Part shown: positions 7,201 to 53,718 of the stretch, one piece after another | Layout: the number at the start of each line of letters is the position of its first letter | How positions within the stretch are numbered: position 1 is the stretch's first letter | From: an uncultured archaeon | GTDB taxonomy: Archaea > Hadarchaeota > Hadarchaeia > Hadarchaeales > WYZ-LMO6 | DNA length: 64,000 nt | Direction of reading: 5' to 3' | NCBI GenBank assembly: GCA_938074535.1 | Contig: CALJER010000008.1 | Coordinates: forward strand, 32,001-96,000 | Notes under the pieces: generated by a model | Told to the model about the DNA's origin: nothing | What the model saw: only the letters and a program-made list of their open reading frames with translations | Databases searched by the model: none | Program-made: the position numbers and the translations under genes

Positions 7201-7950
7201 TCAGGGGGGTAGATACCCCAGTCTCCGGAGGAGTTCCCCCACCCCCAGCAGGGCCGGGGCATCCCCGCGCAGCTGGAAGATGGTTCGCCCCTCCCTGTCC
7301 AGCTCCTCCACCTCTTTGTCCTCCGGCACCCTCCCAAGGACTTCCATGCCTACAGGTACCTCCACCTCCTCCCCCCCCTTCATCCTGTTCAGAACCAGCC
7401 CCGCCCTCCTGTACTTCACCGCCCCCCTGTCCGCCACCCCCTTTATGGTGAAAGCCACTCCCAGCGACCTGGGAGAGGGGTCGGAGACCAGCAGTAGGTC
7501 ATCCACCTCCCTCATCACCCTCCGGTTGATCTGCTCCACCCCGGCCTCCCCGTCTATCACCACCACCTCGAAGCTCCTGGAGACCGAGGTGAGGATCTCC
7601 CTCAGCAGCTCGTTGACCCTGCAGTAGCATCCCTCCTCCTCGGGCCTCCCCATCGCCAGCAGCGAGAATCCCCTCCTCTCCTCCATCACCCCCAGCACCC
7701 CGTAGTCCAGGGAGAGGGCGAGCTCCTCCCGGCTCACCTTTCCCAGGGAGGAGATCCATTCCCTCCTCAGGTCCTCCACCGTCCTCCTCACCTCCACCCC
7801 CAGGGCCTGGGAGAGACCCGAGGAGGGATCCGCATCCACCGCGAGCACCCTCCTCCGGCCACCCTCCACCAGCAGCCGCAGGGAGGCTGAGGCCAGGAAG
7901 GTCTTCCCCACGCCCCCCTTCCCGCAGAAAACCATCACCCCTTCCCTCAC
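7201..7950 (-). CDS. cooC: CooC/AcsF-type nickel-insertion ATPase
   Basis: GKGGVGKT, VDADP, MGRPEEEGCYC.VN, IDGEAGVEQINR. Confidence 0.88.
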   Translation of the reverse strand: MREGVMVFCGKGGVGKTFLASASLRLLVEGGRRRVLAVDADPSSGLSQALGVEVRRTVEDLRREWISSLGKVSREELALSLDYGVLGVMEERRGFSLLAMGRPEEEGCYCRVNELLREILTSVSRSFEVVVIDGEAGVEQINRRVMREVDDLLLVSDPSPRSLGVAFTIKGVADRGAVKYRRAGLVLNRMKGGEEVEVPVGMEVLGRVPEDKEVEELDREGRTIFQLRGDAPALLGVGELLRRLGYLPP

Positions 7951-8657
7951 TTCTTCCCCTCCCTCAGCATCCTATCCCTTATCGCCCTGAGCTCCGCCAC
8001 GCTCCCGCACACCTCCCTGTAGTCGCATCTGTCGCAGTCCAGCGAAACCTCCTCCACCATCTTGCCCACGGCCCCCGCTATCTTCCTGGCCTTCTCCCCA
8101 AACCCCCAGAGGGCCCTCACGCCCTCCTCGCAGGTGGAGAAGACCACCTCCGCGGAAGACAAGGGGAAGCCGGAGCGCAGGGCCCTCAGGAGGGCCCCCC
8201 CCACCACGGAGAGGGAGAGGCCCCTCTCCACCGCCTCCCTGCTCACCCTGCTCCAGGCCTTCAGCTGGGAGGGCAGGCCCCTGACCATGTACCCCCTGAG
8301 CCCGATCCTGAGCGGAGCCAGGTTCAGCCTCCGGTACTCCTCATCCCTGACCTCCCTCGATTCCACCAGACAGAGCTGGGCGAAGGGGACCACGCCCCTC
8401 AGCCGCGGCAGGTCCTCCCCCCACAGGCTCACCCTCCCCTCCTCCACCAGCCCGGGAGTCTCGGTGAGGAGAACCGAGGAGAAGGAGGGGAGCTCCGGCG
8501 GACCGAGCTCCACCCACGTATCCTCCTTCAGAACCACGCCGGATTCCCCCAGGAAGCCGTCCGGGTCGAGGGGCGTGAGCCTCCTCACCCTCCCCCCGCT
8601 TTCTCCCCTTTTCAGAAGCTCCCGCAGGGACCTCAGGTCCTCATCGAAGAGCTTCAT
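7947..8657 (-). CDS. Truncated acetyl-CoA synthase beta (AcsB/CdhC middle-domain)-like protein with C-terminal CxxCx5C
   Basis: VLKEDTWVELG...EEGRVSLWGEDL and WSRVSREAVERGLSL resemble the ACS middle domain; ends CDRCDYREVC; only 236 aa. Confidence 0.6.
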   Translation of the reverse strand: MKLFDEDLRSLRELLKRGESGGRVRRLTPLDPDGFLGESGVVLKEDTWVELGPPELPSFSSVLLTETPGLVEEGRVSLWGEDLPRLRGVVPFAQLCLVESREVRDEEYRRLNLAPLRIGLRGYMVRGLPSQLKAWSRVSREAVERGLSLSVVGGALLRALRSGFPLSSAEVVFSTCEEGVRALWGFGEKARKIAGAVGKMVEEVSLDCDRCDYREVCGSVAELRAIRDRMLREGKK

Positions 8658-9426
8658 CCGCCCTCTCCCGCGCGAGCAGGCAGGCCCCGTAGGCCCCCGC
8701 CAGGATGGGGTCCAGCGGGAGCCTCCTCACCTTCCTCCCCAGTTGCTCCTCCAGGGCCCTCACGAAGCTCTCCAGCCTGCTCACCCCTCCGGCCACCACC
8801 ACCTCCCCCCTCATCCCCACCTTCCTCACGATGGAGGAGACCCTCCCCGCGATGGCCCTGGTGACGGCGGCCACGACGTCCTGCACCTCCTCCCCCTCGT
8901 TCAGGAGGGCCACCACCTCGCTCTCGGCGAAAACCGTGCACTGGGAGGTGATGGAGAGTTTCTTGGTGGAGCGAGACACCGCCTCGTCCCACTCCTCCAG
9001 CCCTATGCCCAGGGCTTCCCCCAGAAGCTCCAGGAACCTCCCCGCCCCGGCCGCGCACCTGTCGTTCGTCCCGTAGTCCACCACCCTTCCCCCCTCCATC
9101 ACCGCCACCCTGGTGGTGTTGGCCCCCACCTCCACCACCGTTCCGGCCTCGGGAACCAGGGAGCTGCACGCCCTGGAAAGGCAGAGAAGGACGGGTCTCT
9201 CCTCCCTGACGAAGTCCAGACCCCTCACCCTCTCCCCCGTCCCCACGCAGTAGGCCACCTCCTCCCACCTCCTCCCGGCACCCTCCAGCGCGAGGGCGAA
9301 GGCACGCTCCGCCGTCTCCCTGGCCCTCGGCCCGGTCTCCAGGACGGCGTGGCCCAGAAGGGAACCATCTTCCATGAGGAGGGCCTTCACCCTCCCGCTC
9401 CCCACGTCCAGTCCTCCCACCAGCAT
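8641..9426 (-). CDS. CoA-substrate enzyme activase, degenerate subunit (BcrD/BzdP/HgdC family)
   Basis: GLDVGS, NDRCAAGAGRFLE and CTVFAESE present; TGYGR and DIGGQD motifs degenerate. Confidence 0.82.
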   Translation of the reverse strand: MLVGGLDVGSGRVKALLMEDGSLLGHAVLETGPRARETAERAFALALEGAGRRWEEVAYCVGTGERVRGLDFVREERPVLLCLSRACSSLVPEAGTVVEVGANTTRVAVMEGGRVVDYGTNDRCAAGAGRFLELLGEALGIGLEEWDEAVSRSTKKLSITSQCTVFAESEVVALLNEGEEVQDVVAAVTRAIAGRVSSIVRKVGMRGEVVVAGGVSRLESFVRALEEQLGRKVRRLPLDPILAGAYGACLLARERADEALR

Positions 9427-10058
9427 CAGCTTCCCCCCACCTTCTGCCTGGCGAAGAGGGCCGCCCCGAGGGCCCCCACCAGCTGCGGGTCGAAGTCCAG
9501 CCTGAGGAGGGGGACCCCCAGCATCTCCTCCAGGTACCTCACCACCCCCACGTTCTTCGCCACCCCTCCGGAGAGGACCACCTCCCTCTCCACCCCCATC
9601 CTCGAGGCCAGCGCCTTCACCCTCGCCGCCATGGCCTGATTCACACCCGCCGCCACATCCTCGGCGCTGGCACCCTCAGCCAGCTGGGAGAGGACCTCCG
9701 ACTGGGCGTAGACCGCACACACGTTGGTGATGGGTATGGGCCTCCTGGAGGAAAGGGAGAGCCTTCCCAGCTCCTCCACTCCCACTCCCAGCGTCTTGGC
9801 CATCAGCTCCAGGAACCTCCCCGTTCCCGCCGCGCACTTGTCGTTCATGACGAAGTTCAGCAGCCTTCCCTCCCCGTCCACCCTTATCACCTTGCAGTCC
9901 TGCCCCCCTATGTCTATCACCGTCCTCACGGAGGGAAGGAGCCAGTGGGCACCCTTTCCGTGGCAGGAGATCTCCGACACGTTCTCCCCCGCGAAAGGAA
10001 TCCTCACCCTGCCGTAGCCCGTCCCCACGCAGTAGGCCACCTCCTCCCACCTCCTCCC
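9236..10058. repeat. 41-bp exact direct repeat shared by the two activase genes (9236-9276 and 10018-10058)
   Basis: cccgtccccacgcagtaggccacctcctcccacctcctccc occurs twice and encodes GRRWEEVAYCVGTG. Confidence 0.9.
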
Positions 10059-10208
10059 CGCCTTCCTCAGCGCCTCCTCCATCACCTCCCTGGCCGAGAG
10101 CTCCGGTCTGGGTTTGACCCTCCTCACCTCGTGGGAGAGGATGCGCCCGTCCTCCAGCAGGACGGCCTTGGCGGTGAGGGAGCCCACGTCGCAGCCTGCC
10201 ACCAGCAT
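9426..10208 (-). CDS. CoA-substrate enzyme activase (BcrA/BzdQ/HgdC family)
   Basis: GCDVGS, TGYGR, EISCHGKGA, DIGGQDCK, MNDKCAAGTGRFLE, CAVYAQSE, GGVAKN. Confidence 0.92.
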   Translation of the reverse strand: MLVAGCDVGSLTAKAVLLEDGRILSHEVRRVKPRPELSAREVMEEALRKAGRRWEEVAYCVGTGYGRVRIPFAGENVSEISCHGKGAHWLLPSVRTVIDIGGQDCKVIRVDGEGRLLNFVMNDKCAAGTGRFLELMAKTLGVGVEELGRLSLSSRRPIPITNVCAVYAQSEVLSQLAEGASAEDVAAGVNQAMAARVKALASRMGVEREVVLSGGVAKNVGVVRYLEEMLGVPLLRLDFDPQLVGALGAALFARQKVGGS

Positions 10209-10209
10209 G

Positions 10210-11577
10210 CTAGCCCAGTCCCATCGTTTCGTTGAACTCCAAAATCCTGCGCTTGATCTCCGAAACGGGGCTGACCCTGAAGTCCCAGGAGTCAGCCTCC
10301 AGCCTGAGGCAGGGCAGGCCCGTCTCCCTCTGGAGCGCCCTTATGAAGGCCTGGAAGCCCCCCCAAGTGTTCTTGCAGGCAGGATGGCCGGCGAACACGA
10401 AGCAGTCCCCTCCCCACTGCTCCACGCACCACACGTAGTCCTCCAGCCACTGGTCGGGCAGATCCACAGGCCCCCTCTGCTGCCTGGTCATGGGGTAGCT
10501 CCAGCACCTCTGCGCCAGCCCCTCCAGCATGGTGTCCAGGGAGGAGGTGTCGATGGGTTTCTCCGCGTGGAAGAGGGTGAGGACGTCCACCACGTAGCTC
10601 ATCCCGTTCTCCTCCAGCCAGAACCAGAGGTCCATGCTGGGGGGGTAGAAGCCCGTGTACACCCAGATCTGCCTGATGCGCTCCTCCGGCTTCGCTCCTT
10701 CCCCCTTCCTGAGCCTGTCCTTGGAGGCCTCCAGCACGGCCTCGAAGACCCTGGTCCCCTGCGGGGTCCCCACCGAGCTGAACTTCACGCCCTGGAGGAA
10801 GATGTTGAAGGAGGAGTGGACGGGGTTGGGGCGGGCCCTCTTCAGGTCATTTATCTCCAGGTAATACTTCCTGCACTTCTCGCTCTCCTCCACCACCTCC
10901 CTCAGCCTCTCCTCCTCCAGTTTCTTCCCGGCGAACTCCTCCAGCCTCCTCACCTGGTGCCTGTACTCCTTCGTGTAGTAGTCGAAGGCCCTCTCCCCGT
11001 GGTAGGTGGGACAGTCTATCCCCAAATAGGGAACACCCAGGCGGACCGCCATGTACTCGTAGAGCTTGGAGTTGGCGTCGCAGCTTCCTGGGGCGGCGGT
11101 AACCACCAGATCCGGGCGCAGGCCCAAGCCCTTCAGGATGGCCCCGCAGGCTGCCCTCTGGGAGGTGCACATGGTCTCGAGCAGTCCCTCCTCCACGCTC
11201 CAGTCGAAGTAGACGTGGGGATCCTCGAGGAAAATGGTGGCGAAGGAGGTGAGGACCTCCGGCACCAGCGGGACGAGGTCCAAAGCGTAAAAGACCTCCG
11301 GGGCGGTGTTGAAGCTGGAGAGCACCACCTTCTTTCCCTCCTCCCTCGCCCCCCTCAGCATCCCGAGATACCAGGCCGCCCACCTAGAGACCTCCAGGGC
11401 CACCCTCCGGATGGCGGGGTCGGAGAGGAAGAGATGCCTCAGGACCTCGGCCTGGGAGGGAACGGCCGCCACCAGGTCCTCCATTTCCCTCTCCGTAACG
11501 TCCTCGGGGATGGAGGAAGCCGTGGAAAGAAGGATGAAGAGCCTCTCCTCGAGCGGCAGCTGCCTAGCCTCTTCCAC
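10210..11577 (-). CDS. 2-hydroxyacyl-CoA dehydratase / benzoyl-CoA reductase subunit (HgdA/BcrB-like)
   Basis: APEVFYALDL..PE, MCTSQR, SCD..SK, HPACK, LRLEADSWD..R. Confidence 0.85.
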   Translation of the reverse strand: MEEARQLPLEERLFILLSTASSIPEDVTEREMEDLVAAVPSQAEVLRHLFLSDPAIRRVALEVSRWAAWYLGMLRGAREEGKKVVLSSFNTAPEVFYALDLVPLVPEVLTSFATIFLEDPHVYFDWSVEEGLLETMCTSQRAACGAILKGLGLRPDLVVTAAPGSCDANSKLYEYMAVRLGVPYLGIDCPTYHGERAFDYYTKEYRHQVRRLEEFAGKKLEEERLREVVEESEKCRKYYLEINDLKRARPNPVHSSFNIFLQGVKFSSVGTPQGTRVFEAVLEASKDRLRKGEGAKPEERIRQIWVYTGFYPPSMDLWFWLEENGMSYVVDVLTLFHAEKPIDTSSLDTMLEGLAQRCWSYPMTRQQRGPVDLPDQWLEDYVWCVEQWGGDCFVFAGHPACKNTWGGFQAFIRALQRETGLPCLRLEADSWDFRVSPVSEIKRRILEFNETMGLG

Positions 11578-11899
11578 CAGCCTCCCTCCTCTCGGCCAGC
11601 CTCCTCAGCTCCCTCTCCTCCAGCCTCGGGCGGAGGTAAATCGCGTACCCACCCTGGGTCTTCTCCACCATGAGCTTCCATCCGCCCTTCTCCCCCTCCT
11701 CCCTCTCCGACTGTCCTCTCACCACCCTGTCCAGCATCTCCTCCATCCCCTCCAACAGCTCCCTGGGAAGTCTGGACCTGAAGTCGGGGCAGATCCTGGT
11801 GCTGGCGGGGTTCTCCTCGCTCCCCTTCAGCTGACACCTTATCCTCTCCCACTCCATCCACGCGGCCCAGAAGCAGTCACCGCACCTAACGGGGCTCAT
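11564..11899 (-). CDS. Small hypothetical protein with CxxC-x12-C-x14-C motif
   Basis: ATG at 11899 overlaps the upstream stop (ATGA); 111 aa; overlaps the downstream start. Confidence 0.65.
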   Translation of the reverse strand: MSPVRCGDCFWAAWMEWERIRCQLKGSEENPASTRICPDFRSRLPRELLEGMEEMLDRVVRGQSEREEGEKGGWKLMVEKTQGGYAIYLRPRLEERELRRLAERREAGGRG

Positions 11900-13029
11900 C
11901 TCCCCAGCCTCTCCAGGAAGGCCTGGATTCTGGTCCTGATCCTCCCCACCTCCGCCAGCGGGCCGTACTGCCTCTCCAGGAGCAGAGTGGGCACCCCCTC
12001 CTCCTCCAGCCTCCTGGCGAAGAGGGTGTTGTCTCCTCCATGCGTGTCGCAGAACTTCATGTGCTCCAGGACCACTCCTTCCACCCTCCATTCTTTGATG
12101 AGCCTCCTCAAAAAGTTGAGCTTCCTCTCGAACTCCCCATAGGTCCTGGCGCAGGGTACGTGGTAGTAGTACCTCCTCACCAGGGCCTCAAAGGGGTCCC
12201 CCCCCTCTTCCACCATGTCCACGATGGACCTCATGCCGAAGCAGAGGGAGTCCGTGACCACCAGGCCCCCCTGCCCCTCTATCACCCTCACCAGCTCCGG
12301 ATCGTCGTTCACGCTCCCCACGAGCATCAGCCTGGTTCCGGAGTACTCCTTTCCCCTCTCCTCCACTTCCTCCAGCGCTTCCTCCAGCAGGCGGTTGTAG
12401 ACCTCCCTTCTCACAGCCGTGCTCGCCACGTGGAGGGCCAGGGCCTCCTGCCCGGAAACAGGGGGTCTCTCCCTCTTTCTCCTTTCGTTGAGCTCCAGGA
12501 GGAGCCTCCTCCCCCTGTTGTACTCCCTGATGGCCTCCTCCAGCTTTTCGGGAGAGAGCTCCGTCCCGAAGTGCCCCTCCATGGCCTTCAAAAGGGAGAA
12601 GATCTCGCCCCGGTAGAACTCCAGCCCGTGCTCCGTGAGGGTGTGGGGGATCCCAAAGTAGTAGAAGAAGGGGGGGAGGTTCCCCGCCGCCTTCCAGCAG
12701 TCGTACATCCTCCTCACATGATCGCAGGTGCGGGAGATCACGGCCCCATCCAGGAAGTCGTACCTTCCCTCCAGCACCAGCTGCAGGCAGCAGCGCGTGT
12801 AGCTGCAGTTGACGGGACCGTACCAGGCGTCCGCCAGGGAGGTTCCTGAGCAACCCGTCCCCCTGATCCTGAAGGGAAGCATGCCCAGGGCGTGGACGAG
12901 CTCTTCCGGGAAGTAGCTGCAGGTGTAGCCCACGACCCTCCCTCCTCCCCTCTTCCACTCTTCCAGCAGGGGATTGGAGATCCCCGAGGAGACCCGCTCC
13001 AGGGCTTCTAGACTTCCCACTTCAAACAT
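11896..13029 (-). CDS. 2-hydroxyacyl-CoA dehydratase / benzoyl-CoA reductase subunit (HgdB/BcrC-like)
   Basis: GYTCSYFPEELVHALG, NCSYTR, TCDHVRR, KFCDTHG, RTRIQAFLE. Confidence 0.88.
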   Translation of the reverse strand: MFEVGSLEALERVSSGISNPLLEEWKRGGGRVVGYTCSYFPEELVHALGMLPFRIRGTGCSGTSLADAWYGPVNCSYTRCCLQLVLEGRYDFLDGAVISRTCDHVRRMYDCWKAAGNLPPFFYYFGIPHTLTEHGLEFYRGEIFSLLKAMEGHFGTELSPEKLEEAIREYNRGRRLLLELNERRKRERPPVSGQEALALHVASTAVRREVYNRLLEEALEEVEERGKEYSGTRLMLVGSVNDDPELVRVIEGQGGLVVTDSLCFGMRSIVDMVEEGGDPFEALVRRYYYHVPCARTYGEFERKLNFLRRLIKEWRVEGVVLEHMKFCDTHGGDNTLFARRLEEEGVPTLLLERQYGPLAEVGRIRTRIQAFLERLGR

Positions 13030-13078
13030 GGTTCTTGCGGGCATAAATCTTTTTTTTTGAAGGGGCCAAGAAAAACCG

Positions 13079-14275
13079 ATGGGAGATAAGAAGGTGGTGG
13101 TCCTGGGAGGGGGCGGGGTGGTGGGAAGAACCGCCGTGAAGGACCTGGCCAAGAGCGGGGTCTTCTCGGAGGTGGTGGTGGCCGACAAGGAGGTGGAGAA
13201 GGCGAGGGAGCACCTGGAGGGAGTTCCCCGCCTCTCCTTCGTGAAGGCAGACCTCACGGAGTTGTCCATCCTCAGGGAGGTGATAAAGGGGGCGGACGTG
13301 GTTCTGAACACCGTAGGACCCTTTTACAAGTTCGGCCCCTTGCTCACGAGGGAGGCCATACGGACCGGGGTGAACTACGTGGACATCTGCGACGACTACG
13401 AGGCCACGCTGGAGCAGCTGAAGATGGACGAGGAGGCGAGGAAGAGGGGTGTGACCGTCCTCACGGGCATGGGCTCTTCACCCGGCGTGGCCAACGTGGT
13501 GGCCAAGTTCTGCTCCCAGTTGCTGGACCAGCCGGAGGAGATCCACATCTACCACATCCACGGGGGGGAGCCGGAAGAGGGGCCCGGGGTGATCTACCAC
13601 CGCATCCACTACATGACGGGAAAAATCCCCATGCTGAAGGATGGGAAGATGGTGTACTTCGGGTTCTTCAGTGAGGAAGGGAGAAGGGAAATAGAGGAAG
13701 TGGACTTCTACGAGCCCATAGGGGTGGCGAAGGTTTACCCCTACCCGCACCCGGAGACCATCACCCTCCCCAGGTACATCCCGGGCCTCAGGAAGGTCAC
13801 CAACAAAGGGTCCGTCCTACCCCTGGAATACTACGAACTGCTGCGGGAGGCCGTGAAGATGGGTTTAGCCGATGAGAAGCCCCTGAAGGTGGGAGGGGCC
13901 TCCGTGGCCCCCATCGACTTCCTGGTCTCCTTCGTCCTCTCCAAGAGGAAGGAATATGCGAGCAGGCTGCCTGAACCCGTGGGTTGCCTGAAGATCGTGG
14001 TGAGGGGGAGAAAGGGGGGAAAGAGGATGGAGTACAGGTTCGCCATCCCCTCCAGGGGTGCGGGTATGGGGGAGGGAACGGCCATTCCCGCCTCGGTGGG
14101 CACGCAGATGGTGGCCAGAGGGGAGATCGAGGAGAAAGGGGTCCTCCCCCCGGAGGCCTGCGTGGATCCCATGAAATTCTTCGAGGAGGCGAGGAGCAGG
14201 GAGGGGATGGGCGGCGTCAGGATCATCTTCGAGAGCGTGGACGAGGAGGGGAGGGTGACCAGCATACCCCTTTGA
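13079..14275 (+). CDS. Saccharopine dehydrogenase family oxidoreductase
   Basis: VLGGGGVVG Rossmann motif, NTVGPFY, YVDICDD, GMGSSPG..N, HPETITLP, GVLPPE. Confidence 0.85.
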   Translation: MGDKKVVVLGGGGVVGRTAVKDLAKSGVFSEVVVADKEVEKAREHLEGVPRLSFVKADLTELSILREVIKGADVVLNTVGPFYKFGPLLTREAIRTGVNYVDICDDYEATLEQLKMDEEARKRGVTVLTGMGSSPGVANVVAKFCSQLLDQPEEIHIYHIHGGEPEEGPGVIYHRIHYMTGKIPMLKDGKMVYFGFFSEEGRREIEEVDFYEPIGVAKVYPYPHPETITLPRYIPGLRKVTNKGSVLPLEYYELLREAVKMGLADEKPLKVGGASVAPIDFLVSFVLSKRKEYASRLPEPVGCLKIVVRGRKGGKRMEYRFAIPSRGAGMGEGTAIPASVGTQMVARGEIEEKGVLPPEACVDPMKFFEEARSREGMGGVRIIFESVDEEGRVTSIPL

Positions 14276-14312
14276 CCCAAGCCTTTTTTTCCTCCAGAAA
14301 ACCACTCTTTTG

Positions 14313-15611
14313 ATGTTCAAGTGGAGGGAAAAGGAGTACGAGGAGCTTGAGGCTCAGCCCGAGGCCCTCCCCGAGGGGGTGGATCCCGAGGAATACGTCA
14401 TCGCCACCTACTTCCTCTCCCTCCCCTCCGCCCTGGATCCCTGGGAGGTGGCTAGGGCCCTGGCCATAGAGCAGAGCACGGGAACCTGGGTGCCCGTTCC
14501 CGGGGAGACCCCCGAGGTGAGGAAGAAGCACGTGGCCAAAGTGGTGGGACTGTACGAGGCCCCCTATCCGGAAGTCCTCTCCCCCACGGAGGCCAGGGAG
14601 AGGAACTATGTGGTGCAAATCGCCTTCCCGCAGGTGAATTTCGGGAAACAGATCCCCATGCTCCTCTCCACGGTGGCGGGGAACCTGATGTGCTGGGAGA
14701 AGATCAAGCTCCTGGACCTCCGCTTCCCCAAGAGCTTCGTGGAGGGCTTCGGGGGCCCCAAGTTCGGGATAGAGGGGATAAGGAAGCTGCTGGGAGTGGA
14801 GGAGAGGCCCCTGATCAACAACATGATCAAGCCCTGCACCGGCTTTACACCCGACGTGGGTGCGAGGCTGGCCTACGAAGCGGCGGTAGGGGGAGTGGAC
14901 ATGATCAAGGACGACGAGCTACTGGGCAACCCCTCCTTTAACCCCATAGAGGAGAGGGTGCCGAAGTACATGGAGGCTCTGGACAGGGCGAACAGGGAAA
15001 AGGGGGAAAAGACCCTCTACACGGTCAACATCACGGACGAGGCCTCCAGGGTGATGGAGAACGCGGACAGGGCCATAGAGCTTGGGGCGAACGCCCTCAT
15101 GATCAACTATCTCACCGCCGGAATCTCCCTGCTCAGGGAGCTGGCGGAGGATCCAAGCATCAACGTCCCCATCCTGGCCCACATGGACTTCTCCGGCACC
15201 ATGTACGTCTCCCCCTACTCAGGCCTCTCCTCCTCGCTCCTGCTGGGGAAGCTGCCCAGGCTGGCGGGTGCCGACATCTTGGTCTACCCAGCACCCTACG
15301 GGAAGGCCCCCTTCATGAAGGAGAGATACGTGAGGATAGCCCACCACCTGACCTTTCCCCTCTACCACCTCCGCCCCACCTTCCCCATGCCCAGCGGGGG
15401 GATCACGCCCTCCATGGTGCCCGAGGTGGTGGGGGATCTGGGGAAGGACATCGTGATAGGGACGGGGGGAGGGATCCACGCCCACCCCATGGGTCCCAGG
15501 GCCGGAGCCAGGGCCTTCAGGCTGGCGGTGGAGGCGGTGATGAGGGGGATGAGCCTGCAGGAGATGGCCAAGGAGCACGAGGAGCTGAGGGTGGCCCTGC
15601 AGATGGGCTGA
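14313..15611 (+). CDS. RuBisCO-like protein (form IV)
   Basis: AIEQSTGTW, GPKFG, IKDDE, SGG, GGGIHAHP present; K177-, R295- and H327-equivalent residues replaced (IKPCTG, AHMD, LVYPAPYGK). Confidence 0.9.
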   Translation: MFKWREKEYEELEAQPEALPEGVDPEEYVIATYFLSLPSALDPWEVARALAIEQSTGTWVPVPGETPEVRKKHVAKVVGLYEAPYPEVLSPTEARERNYVVQIAFPQVNFGKQIPMLLSTVAGNLMCWEKIKLLDLRFPKSFVEGFGGPKFGIEGIRKLLGVEERPLINNMIKPCTGFTPDVGARLAYEAAVGGVDMIKDDELLGNPSFNPIEERVPKYMEALDRANREKGEKTLYTVNITDEASRVMENADRAIELGANALMINYLTAGISLLRELAEDPSINVPILAHMDFSGTMYVSPYSGLSSSLLLGKLPRLAGADILVYPAPYGKAPFMKERYVRIAHHLTFPLYHLRPTFPMPSGGITPSMVPEVVGDLGKDIVIGTGGGIHAHPMGPRAGARAFRLAVEAVMRGMSLQEMAKEHEELRVALQMG

Positions 15612-15620
15612 GGGGGTTCC

Positions 15621-17120
15621 TTGGGGTACATCCTGGCCCACGACCTGGGGACGGAGCTCAACAAGGCCGCCCTGGTGGACGAGGAAGGGAGGATAGTCGC
15701 CTACTGTACCCAGGAGTACCCCGTCTCCTATCCCAGGCCGGGGTGGGCGGAGCAGGATCCGGAGCTCTGGTGGGAGGCCGTCAGGGAAACCACGAAAAAG
15801 GTGCTGGAGCTGGCGGGGATCAAACCGGGAGAGGTGGAGGCGCTGGTCTTCGACAGCATGATGTACACGCTGGTGGCGGTGGACCGGGGAGGAAGACCGC
15901 TCAGGCCGGCCATCCTCTGGCTCGACACCAGGGCGAAGGCCCAGGCGGAGGAGCTGATGGGAAGCCTGGACCTGCTGGGGATGCTGGAGAGGGGGGTGAT
16001 CCCGCCCACCTCGGCCAAGGACATCACCCCGAAGATCCTGTGGGTGAAGCAGGAGGAGCCGCACGTTTTCGAGAAGGCCTGCTTCATCGACAGCAAGGAC
16101 TACCTGGTCCACCGGTGCGTGGGGGAGTTCTACACCGACTGGAGCTGCGCCAGCCTCTTCTGCCTCTTCAACTTCAGGGAGAAGAGGTGGGAGGAGGAGC
16201 TGGTGGAGGAAATGGGCCTTTCCCTGGAAAGGCTCTCCAGGCCCGTGAAGAGCACGGAGGTGGTGGGGAACCTCACGGAGGAAGCCTCCAGGGAGCTTGG
16301 ACTGCCCAGGAAGGTGGAGGTGGTGTGCGGGTCCGGGGACGCCACCGCGGTGGCGGTGGGAGCGGGGGGACCCCACCTGTACGTGGGGACCTCGGCCTGG
16401 ATAGGTGCCCACGTGGAGGAGCCCCTCTTCGACCTGACCGGCGTGGGCAGCATCTGCTCCGCCGATCCCTCCAGGTTCTTCCTGATAGGGGAGATGGAGA
16501 ACGCCGGGGCCTGCCTGAAGTGGTTCAGGGAGACCCTGGCCAGGGAGGAGAAGGAAAGGGCGGAGAAGGAGGGAAAAGGCCCCTACCAGCTGCTGGACGA
16601 GCTGGCCTCCGGTGCGGAGGCCGGGTCGGGGAAGCTCCTCTTCCTCCCCTGGATGATGGGGGAGAGGTGCCCCTTCACCCAGTCCACCGCCAGGGGGGCC
16701 TTCCTGAACCTCACCTTCGGGCACACCAAAGGGCACCTGGTGAGGGCGGTGCTGGAAGGGGTGGCCTACCACATGAGGTGGATCCTGGAGGTGGTGGAAG
16801 GGATGGGGCTCTCCCTCCCCTCCATCAGGGCCTGCGGCGGAGGGGCTAAGAGCGGGGTCTGGCTCCAGATCTTCGCCGACGTGATGGGGAGGAAGGTGGA
16901 GAGGGTCTCCTCCCCGCACCACGTGGGCTCGCTGGGAGCCGCCACCCTTGCCAGGGTAGGTCTGGGAAAGACGGACTTTTCCTCGGCGGAGAGGTCCGTG
17001 AAGGTGGAGGGGGAGTTCCTCCCCTCGGAGGAAAACCGGGACATCTACGACAGGATGTACGAGGAGTTCAGGGGGATGCAGGGGAGGCTGTCGGAGGTCT
17101 TCGAGCGCCTCAACACCTAG
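15621..17120 (+). CDS. FGGY-family carbohydrate kinase (xylulokinase-like)
   Basis: AHDLGT, GWAEQDP, ILWLDTRA, FLPWMMGERCP, RAVLEGVA, GGGAKS. Confidence 0.92.
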   Translation: MGYILAHDLGTELNKAALVDEEGRIVAYCTQEYPVSYPRPGWAEQDPELWWEAVRETTKKVLELAGIKPGEVEALVFDSMMYTLVAVDRGGRPLRPAILWLDTRAKAQAEELMGSLDLLGMLERGVIPPTSAKDITPKILWVKQEEPHVFEKACFIDSKDYLVHRCVGEFYTDWSCASLFCLFNFREKRWEEELVEEMGLSLERLSRPVKSTEVVGNLTEEASRELGLPRKVEVVCGSGDATAVAVGAGGPHLYVGTSAWIGAHVEEPLFDLTGVGSICSADPSRFFLIGEMENAGACLKWFRETLAREEKERAEKEGKGPYQLLDELASGAEAGSGKLLFLPWMMGERCPFTQSTARGAFLNLTFGHTKGHLVRAVLEGVAYHMRWILEVVEGMGLSLPSIRACGGGAKSGVWLQIFADVMGRKVERVSSPHHVGSLGAATLARVGLGKTDFSSAERSVKVEGEFLPSEENRDIYDRMYEEFRGMQGRLSEVFERLNT

Positions 17121-42925: not shown

Positions 42926-44374
42926 TCAGAAGGAGGGGGCAGCCTTCTTCCCCAGCCTCTCCGCGTACCTGGAAAGCACCGGATTCACCTCCCTCTCGAG
43001 GAAGCTGTCACACCTCTCCACCGCGTCGCCCACGTGCCTGGAGGGATCAAGGACCTCTTCCAGCTCCTGGGGGGTCAGAAGGGGTCCCACCACGGGGTCC
43101 TCCCTCAGAAGGGAGGGCAGGGGATTTTCTCCCCCCTCCATGACCCTCTCCCACGCGCGGAGGGAGAGCCTCCTCAGCCTCTCGTGCATCTCCTGCCTGT
43201 TCCCCCCCTTCTTCACCAGGAGCATCAGGAGGGGCTCCAGGGCGGAAAAGGGGGAGAAGAGCTGGAGGTTCCTGGCGATCATGACCCTGTTAACCTTCAT
43301 TCCCTCCACCAGGGTCTGGTACAGGATGAGGATTTCCTCCACCGCCAAAAAGCTCTCCGCCAGGATCACCCTTCGGTTGGCGGAATCGTCCAGGGTGCGC
43401 TCCAGGAGGGTGTGGGAGGCGTTCTCCCAGGCCACCCTGGGAAGGGAGGCCACGTACCTGGCCAGGGAACACATACGCTCCGAGAGCACGGGATTGCGCT
43501 TGAAGGGCATGGCGGAGGACCCCACCTGCGCCTCCCCGAAGGGCTCGGAGAGCTCCCCCCACACGGGGGAATGCAGGTGCCTGAGGTCCGCCCCGAACTT
43601 GTGGGCGCTCTGGGCTATCCCCGCCAGAACGGAGAGGACCATGAAATCCTGCTTCCGGGGGTAGGTCTGCCCGGAGATGGCGAAGTAGGGGAGGCCCAGC
43701 TTTTCCATCACCCTGGCCTCCACCTCCGCGGGCTTCGCCCTCTCTTCCAGCAGCCTCCTGAAGCCCGCGGAGGTCCCCACCGCCCCCTTCACCCCCTTAC
43801 CCTTCAGGAACTCGGAGAGCAGGAGCTCCACCGCCCTCAGGTCCAGGAGGAGGTCCTGGGCGTAGCAGGCCAGCCTGTATCCCAGCGTAGTGGGCTCGGC
43901 AGGCTGCAGGTGGGTCCAGCCCATGCAGACGGTGCTCCGGTGCTCCTTTATCCTGAGGGAAAGGGAGTGGAGGCAGTTGACCAGCCTGGTGAGGAGGAGG
44001 TCGAAGGCCCTCCTCATCCTCAGCACGTCTGCGTTGTCCTCTATGTCCATCGAAGTGGCCCCGAGGTGGAGTTTCCCACCGCCCCTGGGGCACTGCTGGG
44101 AGAAGACCCTCAGTTCCGCCATGAGGTCGTGCCTTATTTCCTTCTCCACCTTCTGAGAGAGCTCCAGGTCCACATGTTCCTTTCCCGCCTTCTCCCTGAT
44201 CTCCCTCAGCTCCTCCTCGGAAATCAGTCCGTACTCCGCCTGGGCCTCCGCCAGGGCCCTCCACACCTTTCTCCAGAGGGCCCTGTACTCCAGCTCCGAG
44301 AAAAGGGAGCGCATCTCCTCGCTCCCGTACCTCCAGGTGAAGGGGGACAGAAAGGTTCGGTGGTCGAAGCCCAT
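42926..44374 (-). CDS. purB: Adenylosuccinate lyase
   Basis: RHDLMA, HLGATS, THLQPAEP, GSSAMPFKRNP, LERTLDDSA; ATG at 44374. Confidence 0.96.
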   Translation of the reverse strand: MGFDHRTFLSPFTWRYGSEEMRSLFSELEYRALWRKVWRALAEAQAEYGLISEEELREIREKAGKEHVDLELSQKVEKEIRHDLMAELRVFSQQCPRGGGKLHLGATSMDIEDNADVLRMRRAFDLLLTRLVNCLHSLSLRIKEHRSTVCMGWTHLQPAEPTTLGYRLACYAQDLLLDLRAVELLLSEFLKGKGVKGAVGTSAGFRRLLEERAKPAEVEARVMEKLGLPYFAISGQTYPRKQDFMVLSVLAGIAQSAHKFGADLRHLHSPVWGELSEPFGEAQVGSSAMPFKRNPVLSERMCSLARYVASLPRVAWENASHTLLERTLDDSANRRVILAESFLAVEEILILYQTLVEGMKVNRVMIARNLQLFSPFSALEPLLMLLVKKGGNRQEMHERLRRLSLRAWERVMEGGENPLPSLLREDPVVGPLLTPQELEEVLDPSRHVGDAVERCDSFLEREVNPVLSRYAERLGKKAAPSF

Positions 44375-44428
44375 TCTCCCTCCCTTTTCTTGGAAGGTTT
44401 TTAACTTTGGGGAGGAGAAAAGGGGAGA

Positions 44429-45961
<1,533 letters not shown>

Positions 45962-46023
45962 CGCCCTCCGGCTCTTACCGGACCCCGGCGACCACGCCTG
46001 AAAGAGGGGAACCCCGCAAGCCT

Positions 46024-46530
46024 TCAGCGGAGGGGCTCCACACCCTCCAAATCGCTCAATTCCCCCCTAGTCTCCTTCGCCCAGACCGCCCTCACCCTCA
46101 TCCCGATGTGCACTTCTTTCGGATCCGCACCTATCAACAGAGTGCCCAAGTTGGAATCGGCGCCGTCGAATTTGACGAAAACGGGAATAATAACCTCATC
46201 CTCCTGGATGAGGCCCTGCTCCACGGGATCCATCCCCAGCACCTTGATCTTCCCCCTTTTGATGGGCGGGCTTATGATGAAGCAGGTGACGGTACCTACG
46301 TCGGAAACCACCACCCTACCCTCCATCTTCCTGTGGCACCTCCCGCACAGGTTCCTGGGAGGCACTATCACCTTCCCGCATCCGAAGCACAGAGAGCCCA
46401 CCAGCTTCCTCTGTTTTAAACCCTCCACGAATTCTTCGAGGAGTCTGTTGGCCTTCCAGGTGTAGGCCCCTATGTTCCACTCCCCCTCCACGCCCAGGGT
46501 TTCCGGTCTTTCCTCTTTGAGGTATGGCAT
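46024..46530 (-). CDS. DUF35 zinc-ribbon/OB-fold protein
   Basis: CFGC..VIVPPR..CGRC; GMRVRAVW. Confidence 0.88.
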   Translation of the reverse strand: MPYLKEERPETLGVEGEWNIGAYTWKANRLLEEFVEGLKQRKLVGSLCFGCGKVIVPPRNLCGRCHRKMEGRVVVSDVGTVTCFIISPPIKRGKIKVLGMDPVEQGLIQEDEVIIPVFVKFDGADSNLGTLLIGADPKEVHIGMRVRAVWAKETRGELSDLEGVEPLR

Positions 46531-46534
46531 CCCC

Positions 46535-47776
46535 TCACCTCGGAGAGTCACCCAGCACCGTCACCGTGGTGTAGTTCGTCACTCCCCCCCATCCGTGGGC
46601 CACGGCGTTCCTGACCTCCTTCGGGACCTGGTGCTCCTCGGCCTTTCCCATCACCTGCAGAGCGGCTTCCAGGATCCTCTGTAAGGCGGAAGACCCTATG
46701 GCGTTCGTGGCGAGAACCCCCCCGGAGGGATCCGTCGGCATTCTGCCGTCGATCTCCATTTCCCCCTCCTCGAGGGCCACCCAGGCCTTTCCCTCGTCAA
46801 AAAGCCCCAGCCTCTCGGCGAAGATGAGCTCCTGACTTGGGAAGGGCTGGTAAATCTCAGCCACATCTATCTCCCTCTTCGGATCCGTTATTCCCGCCAT
46901 CCTGTAGGCCTTCATCGCGGAAACCCTGCACCCCATCTGCTCGGAGGCGTCAAGGATGCCCACTCCCCCGTAGCTCTCGCTCATGAGCTGGTTTTCCTCG
47001 TCGGAGTAGGACGCAAGCCCCTTAACCCAGGCTTTGTCCTCTTTCTTCTTTGCGATATCCTCGGCCGCCACCACAATGGCAGAAGCGCCATCACTCGCGG
47101 GGCAGATGTGTCCGAACCTGAAGGGATACGCCACCATCTCGGTCTTTGCTATGTCCTCCGGGGTGCACCCTGGCCACTGAAGGTGTGCGTACTTGTTCTT
47201 CGCGGCGTTTCTCCTGCTCTTTGCAGCCACCATGTCGAAGTGCTCGATTCTACACCCGGATCTGTGCATGTAGAACATCGCCTGGTAGACGGCGACCCCC
47301 GCAGCGGCCCCCACGACGGTGGTGGCCACCAGACTCTTGAGGTTCATCCCGTAGTTGAAGGCATGGAAGAAATTGGCAAGAGCCACGTGCAGGAGACCGG
47401 TGGTTGCCCCGGGCTCTTTGCTGTCGGAATGCTTCTCCCAGGCCACGGCCAGGACTTTGTCGTACATCCCCGAGGCCACCGCATAGATGGCCCCCTGCCC
47501 CACCGATCCCCCTGTGGTTCCACCCGTGGCTATTCTCATAACGGGCTTTCCCGGGGCGCCTATCCAATCCCCAATCCACTGGTCTGGCTGGGCGACGCCG
47601 CCGAACCCCTGCATGTTCCCCACCACGATGGCGTCAATCTCCTCTGGGGTTACCTGGGCATCCTCCATGGCCCTCCAGGCTGCCTCTTCAATCATTTCAG
47701 GCAGGCTGACATCCCTTCTCTTGCTCGAATGCTTGGTCTGTCCGCATCCTATTATGGCGACATTCCTGAACATCAT
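46535..47776 (-). CDS. SCP2-type thiolase-fold protein, Ltp3-like (no catalytic Cys)
   Basis: GQTKHSSKRRDVS, GKPVMRIATGGTTGGS, VLAVAWEKHS, CPASDGA, DPSGGVLATN. Confidence 0.8.
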   Translation of the reverse strand: MMFRNVAIIGCGQTKHSSKRRDVSLPEMIEEAAWRAMEDAQVTPEEIDAIVVGNMQGFGGVAQPDQWIGDWIGAPGKPVMRIATGGTTGGSVGQGAIYAVASGMYDKVLAVAWEKHSDSKEPGATTGLLHVALANFFHAFNYGMNLKSLVATTVVGAAAGVAVYQAMFYMHRSGCRIEHFDMVAAKSRRNAAKNKYAHLQWPGCTPEDIAKTEMVAYPFRFGHICPASDGASAIVVAAEDIAKKKEDKAWVKGLASYSDEENQLMSESYGGVGILDASEQMGCRVSAMKAYRMAGITDPKREIDVAEIYQPFPSQELIFAERLGLFDEGKAWVALEEGEMEIDGRMPTDPSGGVLATNAIGSSALQRILEAALQVMGKAEEHQVPKEVRNAVAHGWGGVTNYTTVTVLGDSPR

Positions 47777-48918
47777 CCCTCACCCCCAAGAATGAAAACC
47801 CAGTTCTTCTGGGCACACATCCCGAACTGGCCGTGAGCCAGGGCCCTTCGCACACCCGGAATCTGGTACTCACCCGCCTCGCCCCTTATTTGCTTGGCGG
47901 CCTCCACCATCCTCACCAGGCCCGTCGCGCAAACCGGATCGGCCGCGAGAGCCCCACCGCTGGGGTTAACGGGGATTTCACCGCCCTTCTCCGTTGCCCC
48001 CCTCTCCAAGAGGACCTTGCCCTTGCCCCTCCTGCAGAGGCCCAGGGCCTCGTATATCATCAGCTCCTCGTGGGCAAATTTTTCCGAAACTTCGAAGACG
48101 TCAAGCTCCGCGTAGGGATCCCTTATCCCCGCCATCTCATAGGCATCCTTTGCCGCCTTACGCAGGGAATCAAGCTCGAGGAGGTTCCTGTCACGGAGGT
48201 AGAAGTCCTGGCAGACGCCTACCCCCTCTATCCAGACGGGAGTGTCGGTGATCTCCTTTGCCTTTTCTTCCGAGGCCAGAACCAGGGCACAGGCGCCGTC
48301 GCTGATGGGGGACATCATCAACTCCCTTATGGGATGGTAATAAAGTTTGGAGCCGAGCACCTCCTCCACAGTCAGGTCCGGCATCCTCCTCTGGGCAAAG
48401 GGGTTCTTCGCGGCATTCGAGAGATTCTTGACGGAAACCATCGCGATTTCCTCTTCGGAGACTCCGTAGGAGGACATGTACATCCTAGCTTGGATAGCAG
48501 CGGCTGAAACATCGTTGAGAACTCCTATCTGCCTGTCAAAGAGGGGATCCAAAGTGTAGAAGGATACTTGGTGTGGGTTGAAGGTCGACCCCTGAGTGTG
48601 GGCCTCCACCAGAGCTACGTCATGTACACCGGAGAGAATCCTCATGAAAGCGTACCAAGCCGCGGAGGTACCATCTTCCTCTGTTTTCGATTCGTCCTTC
48701 AGGTAGGCCCCCACCGCCATGCTGAGAAAAACGCTTGAAATGGTCCTGCCGTCCAGAAAGTCCGTGGAGGCCGTGACCACGGTATCCACCTCCCCGCGCG
48801 TGATTCCCGCGTGCGAGAGGGCCTCTTTGACAACCTCAAAAACCATGTCCTCCCTGGTCTTTTGCATATCGAACTGATGTTGGGTCTGAGCGTAGCCCAC
48901 TATGGCGACTCTCCTCAA
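47773..48918 (-). CDS. SCP2-type thiolase-fold protein, Ltp4-like (no catalytic Cys)
   Basis: VAIVGYAQ, STDFLDGR.IS, ESKTEEDG, PISDGA, NPSGGALAADP, CAQKN. Confidence 0.8.
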   Translation of the reverse strand: MRRVAIVGYAQTQHQFDMQKTREDMVFEVVKEALSHAGITRGEVDTVVTASTDFLDGRTISSVFLSMAVGAYLKDESKTEEDGTSAAWYAFMRILSGVHDVALVEAHTQGSTFNPHQVSFYTLDPLFDRQIGVLNDVSAAAIQARMYMSSYGVSEEEIAMVSVKNLSNAAKNPFAQRRMPDLTVEEVLGSKLYYHPIRELMMSPISDGACALVLASEEKAKEITDTPVWIEGVGVCQDFYLRDRNLLELDSLRKAAKDAYEMAGIRDPYAELDVFEVSEKFAHEELMIYEALGLCRRGKGKVLLERGATEKGGEIPVNPSGGALAADPVCATGLVRMVEAAKQIRGEAGEYQIPGVRRALAHGQFGMCAQKNWVFILGGEG

Positions 48919-48922
48919 AGGC

Positions 48923-49399: not shown

Positions 49400-49487
49400 A
49401 AAAAGTCGCCTAACCCCTTTAATAAGCCTTTCGGAAGCCGGCGGTCCAAGAGCTATTTAAGCCCCAACACGGAGAGCTGTTTGGGGA

Positions 49488-51497: not shown

Positions 51498-51504
51498 ATA
51501 CTGC

Positions 51505-52728: not shown

Positions 52729-52741
52729 AAGCATCACCCGT

Positions 52742-53662: not shown

Positions 53663-53718
53663 CTCGGACTCACCACTTTTCTTCTCACCGCTACTTAAAT
53701 TTGCGGACAGGATCGGGA

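Follow-up and report, generated by a model that had tools for sequence, protein, structure and literature searches.

A gene module pairing a RuBisCO-like protein with an FGGY kinase in a hot-spring archaeon: candidate for an undescribed small-molecule route

Introduction

Among described RuBisCO-like proteins (RLPs), the MtnW enzymes of methionine salvage come closest to the protein considered here: they share its fold, its K175/K201/D203/E204/H294 core and the lack of a second phosphate site, and their substrate is a monophosphate made upstream, as is proposed below for the archaeal protein. MtnW is partnered by MtnK, MtnA, MtnB, MtnX and MtnD, and Lys98 of the G. kaustophilus enzyme is said to be the catalytic base. 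The RLP of Rhodospirillum rubrum, likened here by description only, is reportedly a 5-methylthioribulose-1-phosphate 1,3-isomerase that operates by proton shifts in an MTA-isoprenoid shunt; its substrate comes from MtnP and MtnA, not from an FGGY kinase, and it has no amine enzyme as partner. The kinase of the apionate pathway belongs to the DUF1537 family and not to FGGY. The RLPs of that pathway, OiaC and OiaX, follow a similar logic, in which an oxidoreductase and a kinase precede an RLP acting on a keto-phosphate, and decarboxylation or transcarboxylation of 3-oxo-isoapionate-4-phosphate by RLPs is described in the part of PMC6302742 that quotes Carter 2018. Its oxidoreductase is not saccharopine-dehydrogenase-like, and the pathway is not known to involve amine chemistry.

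Carboxy(nor)spermidine dehydrogenase (B. fragilis 8deb, H. pylori 8h52) has the same two-domain architecture as the saccharopine-dehydrogenase-like (SDH-like) protein of this study, at 18-19% identity. In cyanobacterial biotin synthesis BioU reportedly replaces the class-III aminotransferase BioA, a swap between a saccharopine-dehydrogenase fold and a class-III aminotransferase for one amination step that resembles the exchange described below; BioU is a single-turnover enzyme with a fatty-acid-like substrate, and the biotin pathway contains neither kinase nor RLP.

This article describes a cluster of three genes in a 64,000-nucleotide stretch of DNA (the window) from a hot-spring archaeon. 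A first-pass annotation had read it as an undescribed archaeal route in which the kinase makes a phosphorylated substrate for the RLP, with a hint of an amine-linked precursor; this overall interpretation is partly supported.

Organization of the Locus

The cluster occupies positions 13079-17120 of the window and consists, as first annotated, of three closely spaced co-directional genes on the plus strand, each of them a real gene by its match to Pfam families. The first (13079..14275, P0001) encodes a saccharopine-DH-like NAD(P) oxidoreductase of 398 aa with Sacchrp_dh_NADP and Sacchrp_dh_C domains, the second (14313..15611) a form IV RLP of 432 aa counted from its ATG (RuBisCO_large and RuBisCO_large_N), and the third (15621..17120, P0003) an FGGY-family carbohydrate kinase of 499 aa (FGGY_N and FGGY_C). 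The SDH-like stop lies 37 nt before the RLP ATG at 14313, the RLP frame opening already at a TTG at 14310, and 9 nt separate the RLP stop from the TTG start of the kinase, which is preceded by the Shine-Dalgarno-like GAGGGGG. Third-position GC of the three frames (0.88-0.92) is like that of the remaining genome.

Upstream, a short, AT-rich divergent intergenic spacer (ataaatcttttttttt, 13047..13078, no strand assigned) separates the SDH-like gene from a minus-strand HGD-D-like gene, for which Met candidates occur at about 13031 and 13046. The spacer probably houses one or more promoters, and transcripts starting from it are predicted to be leaderless or almost so. The 3' end of the cluster is convergent with an archease gene. 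The reading we prefer, at about even odds, is that the three genes form one operon serving an undescribed small-molecule route around the kinase-RLP pair.

The RuBisCO-Like Protein Forms a Clade of its Own

The second protein is a member of the RuBisCO superfamily (PF00016, 172.9 against a Pfam gathering score of 30.1; PF02788, 46.7 against 20.7), and a database record holds a 432-aa protein 100% identical to it. Its best NCBIfam model is MtnW, and its nearest solved structures are the MtnW enzymes of B. subtilis (2zvi) and G. kaustophilus (2oek), at about 295 bits and 40% identity; matches ranking below MtnW, Chlorobium-type RLP, form III RuBisCO and R. palustris RLP2 groups, reach at most about 150 bits. 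The protein nevertheless scores below all NCBIfam equivalog cut-offs, which rejects MtnW (NF007095, 378.8 < 409; TIGR03332, 337.4 < 513.6), form III RuBisCO (TIGR03326, 279.7 < 497.45) and the 3-oxo-isoapionate-4-phosphate decarboxylase OiaX (NF042437, 194 < 700). The MtnW cut-offs were likewise missed by all seven clade members scanned, the window RLP included (361-392 against 409), while the control loci L021 and L032 pass the MtnW models.

In the phylogenetic tree the protein falls in a separate clade of 30 rows (SH-aLRT 96), apart from the MtnW pair, which forms a distinct branch with a support of 100; the tree comes from a quick search in which the order of branches is not settled (fork at 86). 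This RLP lies outside every characterised isofunctional model it was compared with and, judged by sequence, belongs to an uncharacterised FGGY-linked clade. The clade is widespread among anaerobic archaea and bacteria, many of them uncultured. Its members come from Chloroflexota, Caldisericia, Acidimicrobiales, Theionarchaea, Bathyarchaeota and Asgard groups, and the qualification of the route as archaeal has to be dropped. Within Hadarchaeota the clade is limited to one genus, and this genome holds no second RLP. The literature searched contained no published function for the clade, and the searches returned no biochemical, expression or genetic data on any member. JGI annotates members as DK-MTP-1-P enolase, and some are named ribulose 1,5-bisphosphate carboxylase in NCBI records.

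Active Site Residues

The residues were compared across 35 clade members and four form III RuBisCOs that pass TIGR03326. Columns are given in spinach numbering, presumably placed correctly through motifs familiar from RuBisCO, and this mapping is supported by the form III rows, which carry the canonical residues in the mapped columns. E60, T65, N123, K175, K201, D203, E204, H294 and K334 are invariant in the window RLP and in all 35 members, and the P1-site glycines G380/G381 and G403/G404 are kept in 35/35. In 34 of the 35, Cys replaces K177, Met replaces R295 and Val replaces H327. The pattern first annotated for the window protein (E60, N123, K175, KDDE, H294 and K334 retained; Cys177, Met295 and no H327) is therefore seen in the alignment. 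C177, M295, S/A298 and V327, where the form III rows have K, R, H and H, rule out a bona fide RuBisCO. The second phosphate site is lost in the clade (R295M, H327V, H298A/S), which fits a monophosphate supplied by a single kinase, and an Asp at 296, in the former P2 region, is invariant (35/35).

These residues bear on a variant of methionine or 5-deoxyribose (SAM by-product) salvage. In such a scheme the substrate of the RLP would be 5-methylthio- or 5-deoxy-ribulose-1-phosphate or the corresponding dehydrated diketone, as for MtnW or the R. rubrum RLP, and the last amination would fall to the amine enzyme, transamination being the last step of classical methionine salvage. We regard it as quite unlikely. 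The kinship to MtnW and the enolase label given by JGI speak for it. The N123 column, however, holds Asn in the window RLP and in all 35 members and Lys in both rows that pass the MtnW models, and this MtnW Lys we take to be the catalytic base; E60, T65 and K334, invariant here, are lost in MtnW, and Cys177, Met295 and Asp296 of the window RLP correspond to Val, Pro and Ala. The missed cut-offs and the separate branch of the MtnW pair argue in the same direction.

The genomic inventory is divided on the same question. The window had been described as devoid of mtn genes, which holds for its 59 ORFs scanned but not for the genome, where MTAP (MtnP; 292 > 274.85) and MtnA (352.4 > 279) are encoded on contig C5 (NCBIfam models). 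A class II aldolase on contig C46, also in favor of salvage, lies below every equivalog cut-off (MtnB, 77 against 137) and is more like ribulose-1-P/fuculose-P aldolase; in this genome, which is 93.6% complete, no match to MtnK, MtnX or ARD reached its cut-off. Across the clade, the module aminotransferase gene has a class II aldolase/MtnB-family gene as fusion partner or neighbour at 4/84 loci, which together with MtnP and MtnA in the genome keeps a link to SAM by-products in play. Against this, MtnA or MTAP homologues flank 0/84 clade loci, unlike the Bacillus MtnW locus L021, which has mtnA, and a kinase is unnecessary where MtnP is present, yet the FGGY kinase is the most constant partner.

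In RuBisCO, E60, T65, N123 and K334 work after enolisation on the CO2-derived carboxylate. Their retention in 35/35 members could mean carboxylation or decarboxylation rather than simple isomerisation, so that the RLP might be a carboxylase, decarboxylase or hydrolytic cleaver of a monophosphorylated keto-sugar, for which the apionate-type enzymes described in that part of PMC6302742 offer a precedent. This reading is very unlikely in our judgment, as kept residues alone do not establish chemistry, the OiaX model is far from its cut-off and no conserved partner gene handles a two-product cleavage. Its more specific form, such a reaction on an ammonium-bearing ketose-1-phosphate, is suggested by the same four residues together with a P2 site turned into a hydrophobic pocket with the invariant Asp, and is a long shot; if true, RuBisCO-type chemistry on an amino-sugar phosphate would be common among subsurface anaerobes.

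The SDH-Like Enzyme and the FGGY Kinase

The SDH-like protein belongs to the saccharopine/carboxyspermidine dehydrogenase fold family, with 65.7 bits (6.6e-18; threshold 25.1) for Sacchrp_dh_NADP (PF03435) and 40.3 bits (5.4e-10; threshold 31) for Sacchrp_dh_C (PF16653). Its AF2 model (pLDDT 91.4) matches carboxyspermidine dehydrogenase best (8deb; TM 0.79, E 2.7e-27), followed by L-lysine dehydrogenase, saccharopine dehydrogenase/reductase, BioU (ranks 26-31, TM 0.56-0.57) and homospermidine synthase. Down to rank 42 of the listing, the structural matches all act by oxidising or reducing C-N bonds; the protein is 18-21% identical to its structural neighbours. Carboxynorspermidine synthase was rejected (NF043000, 31.2 < 800), and no carboxyspermidine decarboxylase or polyamine gene adjoins the SDH-like gene. 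On its modelled fold the protein is a putative amine/imine dehydrogenase; it could instead be a polyol dehydrogenase.

Both domains of the FGGY family are found in the kinase (PF00370, FGGY_N, 172.8 bits; PF02782, FGGY_C, 116.5 bits). Xylulokinase XylB, its best model, was rejected (TIGR01312, 326.8 < 380.25; NF011601, 217.7 < 912); gntK_FGGY ranks second among NCBIfam models (266.9), and E. coli xylulokinase 2itm is the best PDB match. These closest models, xylulokinase and gluconokinase, say little on the substrate. The genome has no second FGGY kinase, tblastn with P0003 recovering just P0003 at E<=1e-5.

A Conserved Module With Interchangeable Amine Enzymes

The neighborhood was surveyed at 84 loci of the clade (RLP identity 59-100%). 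FGGY relatives, 35-47% identical, flank the RLP at 57 of them, class-III aminotransferases at 26, and SDH-like relatives, 47-53% identical, adjoin it at 23. In a stricter set, dereplicated at 95% and with at least 3 kb of flank on both sides (n=24), the FGGY kinase is present at 18 loci, the aminotransferase at nine, the SDH-like gene at nine and both amine enzymes at none; one or the other thus occurs at 18/24, and together with FGGY at 16/24. The recurring gene orders are AT3>FGGY>RLP, FGGY>RLP>SDH and SDH>RLP>FGGY, and on the RLP tree, where 20 rows were labelled, the state switches between SDH and aminotransferase at least four times. The association expected for the trio extends, then, far beyond this genome, but the core of the module is FGGY + RLP, and the SDH-containing trio is one of two main variants. 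The amine-linked hint is strengthened, since in other lineages the SDH-like gene is swapped, mutually exclusively, for the aminotransferase; the repeated switches and the amine/imine dehydrogenase folds support it as well.

That the genes are chance neighbours, for instance a housekeeping xylulokinase beside an orphan RLP with no common pathway, is scarcely credible. XylB is the best model of the kinase, and partners are missing at some loci, which weighs against the proposed route as well, with none within four ORFs at 4/24 well-flanked loci and no FGGY within 6 kb at the near-identical, TetR-linked L138, L145 and L147. The adjacency is nonetheless kept across phyla at RLP identities of 59-66% and in several orders, RLP and kinase are separated here by 9 nt, and the kinase misses the XylB cut-off.

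Racemases, dialkylglycine decarboxylase and phospho-lyases are as close to the module aminotransferase as transaminases are, so that "transamination" is an insecure assignment; this genome has no ortholog of the module aminotransferase, the best match being 35% identical.

The direction of the route is a further point of discussion. In a biosynthetic sense, the kinase would first phosphorylate a sugar, which the RLP would turn into a keto or aldehyde phosphate. Reductive amination, by the SDH-like enzyme or the aminotransferase, would then yield an amino-polyol phosphate from which a cofactor, solute, lipid head group or iminosugar could be made. Most fold neighbours of the SDH-like protein (carboxyspermidine dehydrogenase, saccharopine reductase, BioU, homospermidine synthase) are amine-forming; GabT1, a class-III aminotransferase of 1-deoxynojirimycin synthesis, aminates a ketose phosphate and sets a precedent; no transporter or regulator adjoins the trio in this 1.2 Mb genome; and the invariant Asp296 would suit a substrate already bearing an ammonium group. 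Biosynthesis is still unlikely, if to be taken seriously: at a minority of clade loci, MFS, DUF401 and APC permease transporters and TetR/GntR-type regulators beside the module resemble catabolism, though MFS may export; a phosphatase or later tailoring gene is not a regular neighbour of the module across the clade loci; and no candidate end product is known across such different organisms.

Proposed Route

Beside the observed family memberships, residue pattern, gene association and SDH/aminotransferase exchange, we infer the chemistry, substrate class and direction of a three-step route comprising amine/carbonyl interconversion, monophosphorylation by the kinase and enolisation by the RLP, a proposal to which we give about an even chance. 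The SDH-like enzyme would interconvert amine and carbonyl on a hydroxylated sugar-like substrate with NAD(P), a role that a specific class-III aminotransferase would take in other lineages. The FGGY kinase would then phosphorylate a primary hydroxyl, giving a keto-sugar-like monophosphate that would sit in the retained P1 phosphate site of the RLP, where the carbamylated Lys201-Mg2+ center (K201/D203/E204/H294/K175) would abstract a proton beside the carbonyl. The enediol(ate) may be reprotonated (isomerisation) or cleaved, and the product would enter central metabolism. Isomerisation of a ketose-1-phosphate by proton shifts, the type of reaction attributed to the R. rubrum RLP, seems the most likely. 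We lean towards catabolism or salvage, in which the amine would be lost at the outset, but the proposal is at its weakest on where step 1 falls in the sequence and which way it runs.

Concluding Remarks

The majority of RLP clades still lack an assigned function, and the one described here is large and occupies groups that dominate anoxic sediments and the hot subsurface (Chloroflexota, Bathyarchaeia, Theionarchaea, Asgard archaea and Hadarchaeales). The labels methionine-salvage enolase (JGI) and ribulose 1,5-bisphosphate carboxylase (NCBI) can distort metabolic reconstructions of these organisms. A conserved kinase and an interchangeable amine enzyme provide a cheap and concrete experimental entry, as three soluble enzymes are involved. 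Once solved, the pathway would place the RuBisCO superfamily in a new reaction context and might uncover a new amino-sugar or amino-polyol route.

An RLP-Encoding Operon in a Hadarchaeales Genome

The source genome (G000; 1.2 Mb, 93.6% complete) carries three plus-strand ORFs between positions 13079 and 17120, separated by gaps of 37 nt and then 9 nt, which bears out the closely spaced, co-directional trio described in the first-pass annotation. The first gene (13079-14275) encodes a saccharopine-dehydrogenase-like (SDH-like) protein with the Pfam domains Sacchrp_dh_NADP and Sacchrp_dh_C; the second (14313-15611) encodes the form IV RuBisCO-like protein (RLP), a homolog of the RuBisCO large chain whose ORF opens with TTG at 14310 and which has a 100% identical database counterpart of 432 aa; and the third (15621-17120) encodes an FGGY kinase, assigned by Pfam, with GAGGGGG preceding its TTG start. 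Third-position GC is 0.88-0.92 in all three ORFs, the codon signature of this genome. Downstream, a convergent archease gene overlaps the kinase stop. Upstream of the SDH-like gene, a spacer of 33-48 bp, partly AT-rich (ataaatcttttttttt), is the putative promoter region common to this gene and to a divergent minus-strand cluster (7201-13046) containing two HGD-D genes (2-hydroxyacyl-CoA dehydratase/benzoyl-CoA reductase-like), two BcrAD/BadFG ATPase genes, one ORF without assignment and a CbiA/CooC-like ATPase gene. The small gaps, the convergent gene downstream and the divergent cluster upstream together predict a three-gene operon. The HGD-D/BcrAD genes were rejected as pathway members, as they lie on the opposite strand and recur in same-genus loci only.

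Two other observations concern the window at large. GC drops to 0.52-0.55, against about 0.63, over positions 46000-61400, where genes of acyl-CoA metabolism are found (thiolase-like/DUF35 pairs, acyl-CoA dehydrogenases, AMP-binding ligases, BKACE and an NMO-like protein). The adenylosuccinate-lyase ORF (42926-45151, minus strand) spans 741 aa with the Lyase_1 domain from residue 295 only, so that either its start was mis-set by the ORF rule or the protein has an N-terminal extension without assignment.

Active Site and Relation to Methionine Salvage

The RLP reached no NCBIfam equivalog cut-off, scoring 378.8 (cut-off 409) and 337.4 (cut-off 513.6) with the MtnW models NF007095 and TIGR03332, 279.7 (cut-off 497.45) with form III RuBisCO and 194 (cut-off 700) with OiaX, the RLP of the apionate pathway. 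Six more members of its FGGY-linked clade were likewise under all cut-offs, with NF007095 scores of 361-392; among the controls, a Bacillus nakamurai protein and one Bacillota protein passed MtnW and four Hadarchaeota proteins passed form III. The closest solved structures are the MtnW proteins of B. subtilis and G. kaustophilus (about 295 bits). On these comparisons, the RLP is predicted to be none of the characterized enzymes that could be compared.

Active-site residues were read from an alignment of 35 clade members, picked among the 120 relatives listed, with MtnW and form III anchors; spinach RuBisCO numbering was placed on it through motifs that we take to mark the equivalent positions. 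All 35 members have E60, T65, N123, K175, K201, D203, E204, H294, K334, G380, G381, G403 and G404, and the substitutions C177 (34/35), M295 (34/35), D296 (35/35) and V327 (34/35) are nearly or fully constant, in agreement with the pattern initially proposed for the RLP (E60, N123, K175, H294 and K334 kept, Cys at 177, Met at 295 and no H327). In the same columns the MtnW rows read G60, S65, K123, V177, P295, A296, L327 and S334, and the form III rows are canonical, with K177, R295, H298 and H327. Lys98 of MtnW reportedly acts as the base. The clade has thus retained RuBisCO's enolization machinery and P1 phosphate site, together with residues lost in MtnW, and no longer has the second phosphate site (P2).

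Methionine salvage has to be weighed as an alternative role. The window has no mtn genes, as the first reading held, yet MTAP (score 292, cut-off 274.85) and MtnA (352.4, cut-off 279) are encoded 1.7 kb apart on contig C5 of the same genome. The cell therefore probably produces 5-methylthio- and 5-deoxy-ribulose-1-phosphate, and the RLP could in principle meet them. A class II aldolase gene on contig C46 encodes a protein nearer to ribulose-1-phosphate/fuculose-phosphate aldolases than to MtnB, and MtnK, MtnX and ARD gave no match over cut-off in this 93.6% complete assembly. Against this role, the presence of MtnP would make a kinase unneeded, yet the kinase is the most constant partner of the RLP; an MtnA or MTAP homolog occurs at none of the 84 clade loci, whereas the Bacillus MtnW locus has one; and the RLP active site is unlike that of MtnW at the decisive positions.

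Distribution and Phylogeny of the RLP Clade

Some RuBisCO-family match is present in 52 of the 66 Hadarchaeota genomes, and a protein at least 90% identical to the window RLP occurs within this phylum only in the source genome and in three of the four further genomes in that genus, the remaining one being 88% complete. The next best Hadarchaeota match has 46% identity, and the protein encoded in most other genomes of the phylum is at about 38%; four of these were scanned and pass form III. The RLP is the only RuBisCO-family match in the source genome; a single match is also found in two of the three other RLP-bearing genomes of the genus, the third (G064) having a second, very weak one. Given its confinement to one genus and the different protein in most other Hadarchaeota, it is probable that this genus acquired the RLP gene. 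Relatives at 59-81% identity, among the matches listed, belong to Bathyarchaeota, Theionarchaea, Methanofastidiosa, Thorarchaeota, Jordarchaeales, Chloroflexota, Caldisericia and Acidimicrobiales, the last three of which make the term "archaeal", first applied to the route, too narrow. An alignment query of the metagenome collection returned at least 516 stretches encoding a relative; the genome-contig search with the single RLP query gave only 4 close loci, and the wider clade was drawn from the metagenome search.

A quick IQ-TREE phylogeny (LG+C20, 67 rows, SH-aLRT support only) included 25 of the 80 metagenome loci, chosen for flank length and spread, the other 55 being omitted along with proteins below 390 aa, near-duplicates (L040-43, L051, L061, L062, L064 and L066) and genome-search loci with a minus-strand match. 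The window RLP and two more Hadarchaeales proteins are sister to Bathyarchaeota (SH-aLRT 97) and nest with them in a 30-row clade (96). This clade stands apart from the MtnW pair (100), from isolated long branches and from a clade in which 13 rows represent Bacillota, Chloroflexota and Actinomycetota; the branching order of these groups is an open fork (86). The phylogenetic check proposed at the outset thus places the RLP in a clade of its own outside the MtnW pair.

Conserved Gene Partners

Eighty-four loci (80 metagenome, of the at least 516 stretches, and 4 genome) were pooled, and neighboring ORFs were clustered from all-against-all BLASTP comparisons, with Pfam annotation of the cluster representatives. 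An FGGY kinase (35-47% identical to that of the window) is encoded at 57 of the 84 loci, a class-III aminotransferase at 26 and an SDH-like protein (46-53% identity outside the genus) at 23. Dereplication at 95% RLP identity left 67 groups, many on short contigs: 44 with FGGY, 19 with the aminotransferase, 19 with SDH, 2 with both amine enzymes and 18 with none. When at least 3 kb was available on each side (n = 24), FGGY was found in 18, the aminotransferase in 9, SDH in 9, both in 0, FGGY plus an amine enzyme in 16 and none in 4. The gene association seen in the window therefore recurs beyond the source genome. Among the four partnerless loci, L076 and L098 have an FGGY gene farther off, L113 a class I/II aminotransferase and L145 TetR and SDR genes. 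Both groups with the two amine enzymes are Bathyarchaeota-type loci, whose aminotransferase has just 29% identity to the main type; two main-type proteins, one from each half of the RLP clade, share 52% identity. Among 20 labeled rows of the RLP tree (10 of either kind), there are at least 4 switches between the aminotransferase and SDH states.

Minor neighbors encode MFS, DUF401 or APC transporters, SCP2 and FMN-reductase proteins and TetR regulators. At 4 of the 84 loci, the module aminotransferase carries a class II aldolase/adducin-family domain in fusion or has one encoded alongside: as a 757-aa fusion in L128 (2109-4382, minus strand), directly upstream in L106 (2168-4333), and in L110 (385-1200) and L105 (about 11020-11523); these domains reached no NCBIfam equivalog cut-off, MtnB included.

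The SDH-Like Enzyme

An AlphaFold2 model of the SDH-like protein, built from 16 sequences (pLDDT 91.4), had carboxyspermidine dehydrogenase as its best Foldseek match in the PDB (TM 0.79), followed by two structural-genomics proteins, Pyrococcus horikoshii L-lysine dehydrogenase, saccharopine dehydrogenases/reductases, BioU and homospermidine synthase. The listed matches are all C-N redox enzymes; identities are just 12-21%, so the case is made at the level of the fold. Because the SDH-like gene and a PLP enzyme swap with each other and are mutually exclusive, a putative amine/carbonyl step is the best reading of this enzyme. BioU and BioA are a published precedent for exchange between an SDH fold and a PLP enzyme.

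Contig C9 of the source genome (30674-35238; L152:4674-9239) encodes an SDH-like paralog with 36-39% identity to the module enzymes, convergent with genes for a xylose-isomerase-like TIM barrel and two MFS transporters. This locus could provide uptake and isomerase steps, as one half of the pathway discussed here or of one parallel to it.

Neighboring RLP Clades and Significance

In neighboring RLP clades, an FGGY gene adjoins the RLP in L006, L010, L015, L017 and L044 and lies about 2 kb off in L014, and these loci add xylose-isomerase-like TIM barrels, GFO/IDH/MocA dehydrogenases, class II FBP aldolase or ComB-like phosphatase. L044 (G051:C5:54865-59097), from another Hadarchaeota family, encodes an RLP 46% identical to that of the window with E60, N123, C177, D296 and K334, in the order FGGY, ComB-like 2-phosphosulfolactate phosphatase family gene, RLP. 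A further clade lacks E60 and K334; there a UPF0261 gene adjoins the RLP in L024 and L031 and lies about 3 kb upstream in L005, with RpiB-like, TIM-like, class II aldolase-like and GntR genes in between. GntR is also present in L024, and tblastn gave just an aldolase-like stretch in L008. A tetrose-phosphate scheme with TIM/RpiB paralogs was rejected, since such genes flank this neighboring clade (L005) and not that of the window.

No publication on the window's clade was found among the listed titles and abstracts on RLPs and their links to FGGY, Hadarchaeota, aminotransferase plus kinase clusters and YkrW, and passages of PMC6302742 mention neither FGGY nor xylulokinase. The initial interpretation, in which the kinase makes a phosphorylated substrate for the RLP, stands in outline for a clade that spans bacteria as well as archaea, its chemistry being a proposal. 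Since kinase linkage extends to the neighboring clades, production of the RLP substrate by a kinase seems to be a common principle in this part of the superfamily, and the amine enzyme is the feature special to the window's clade.
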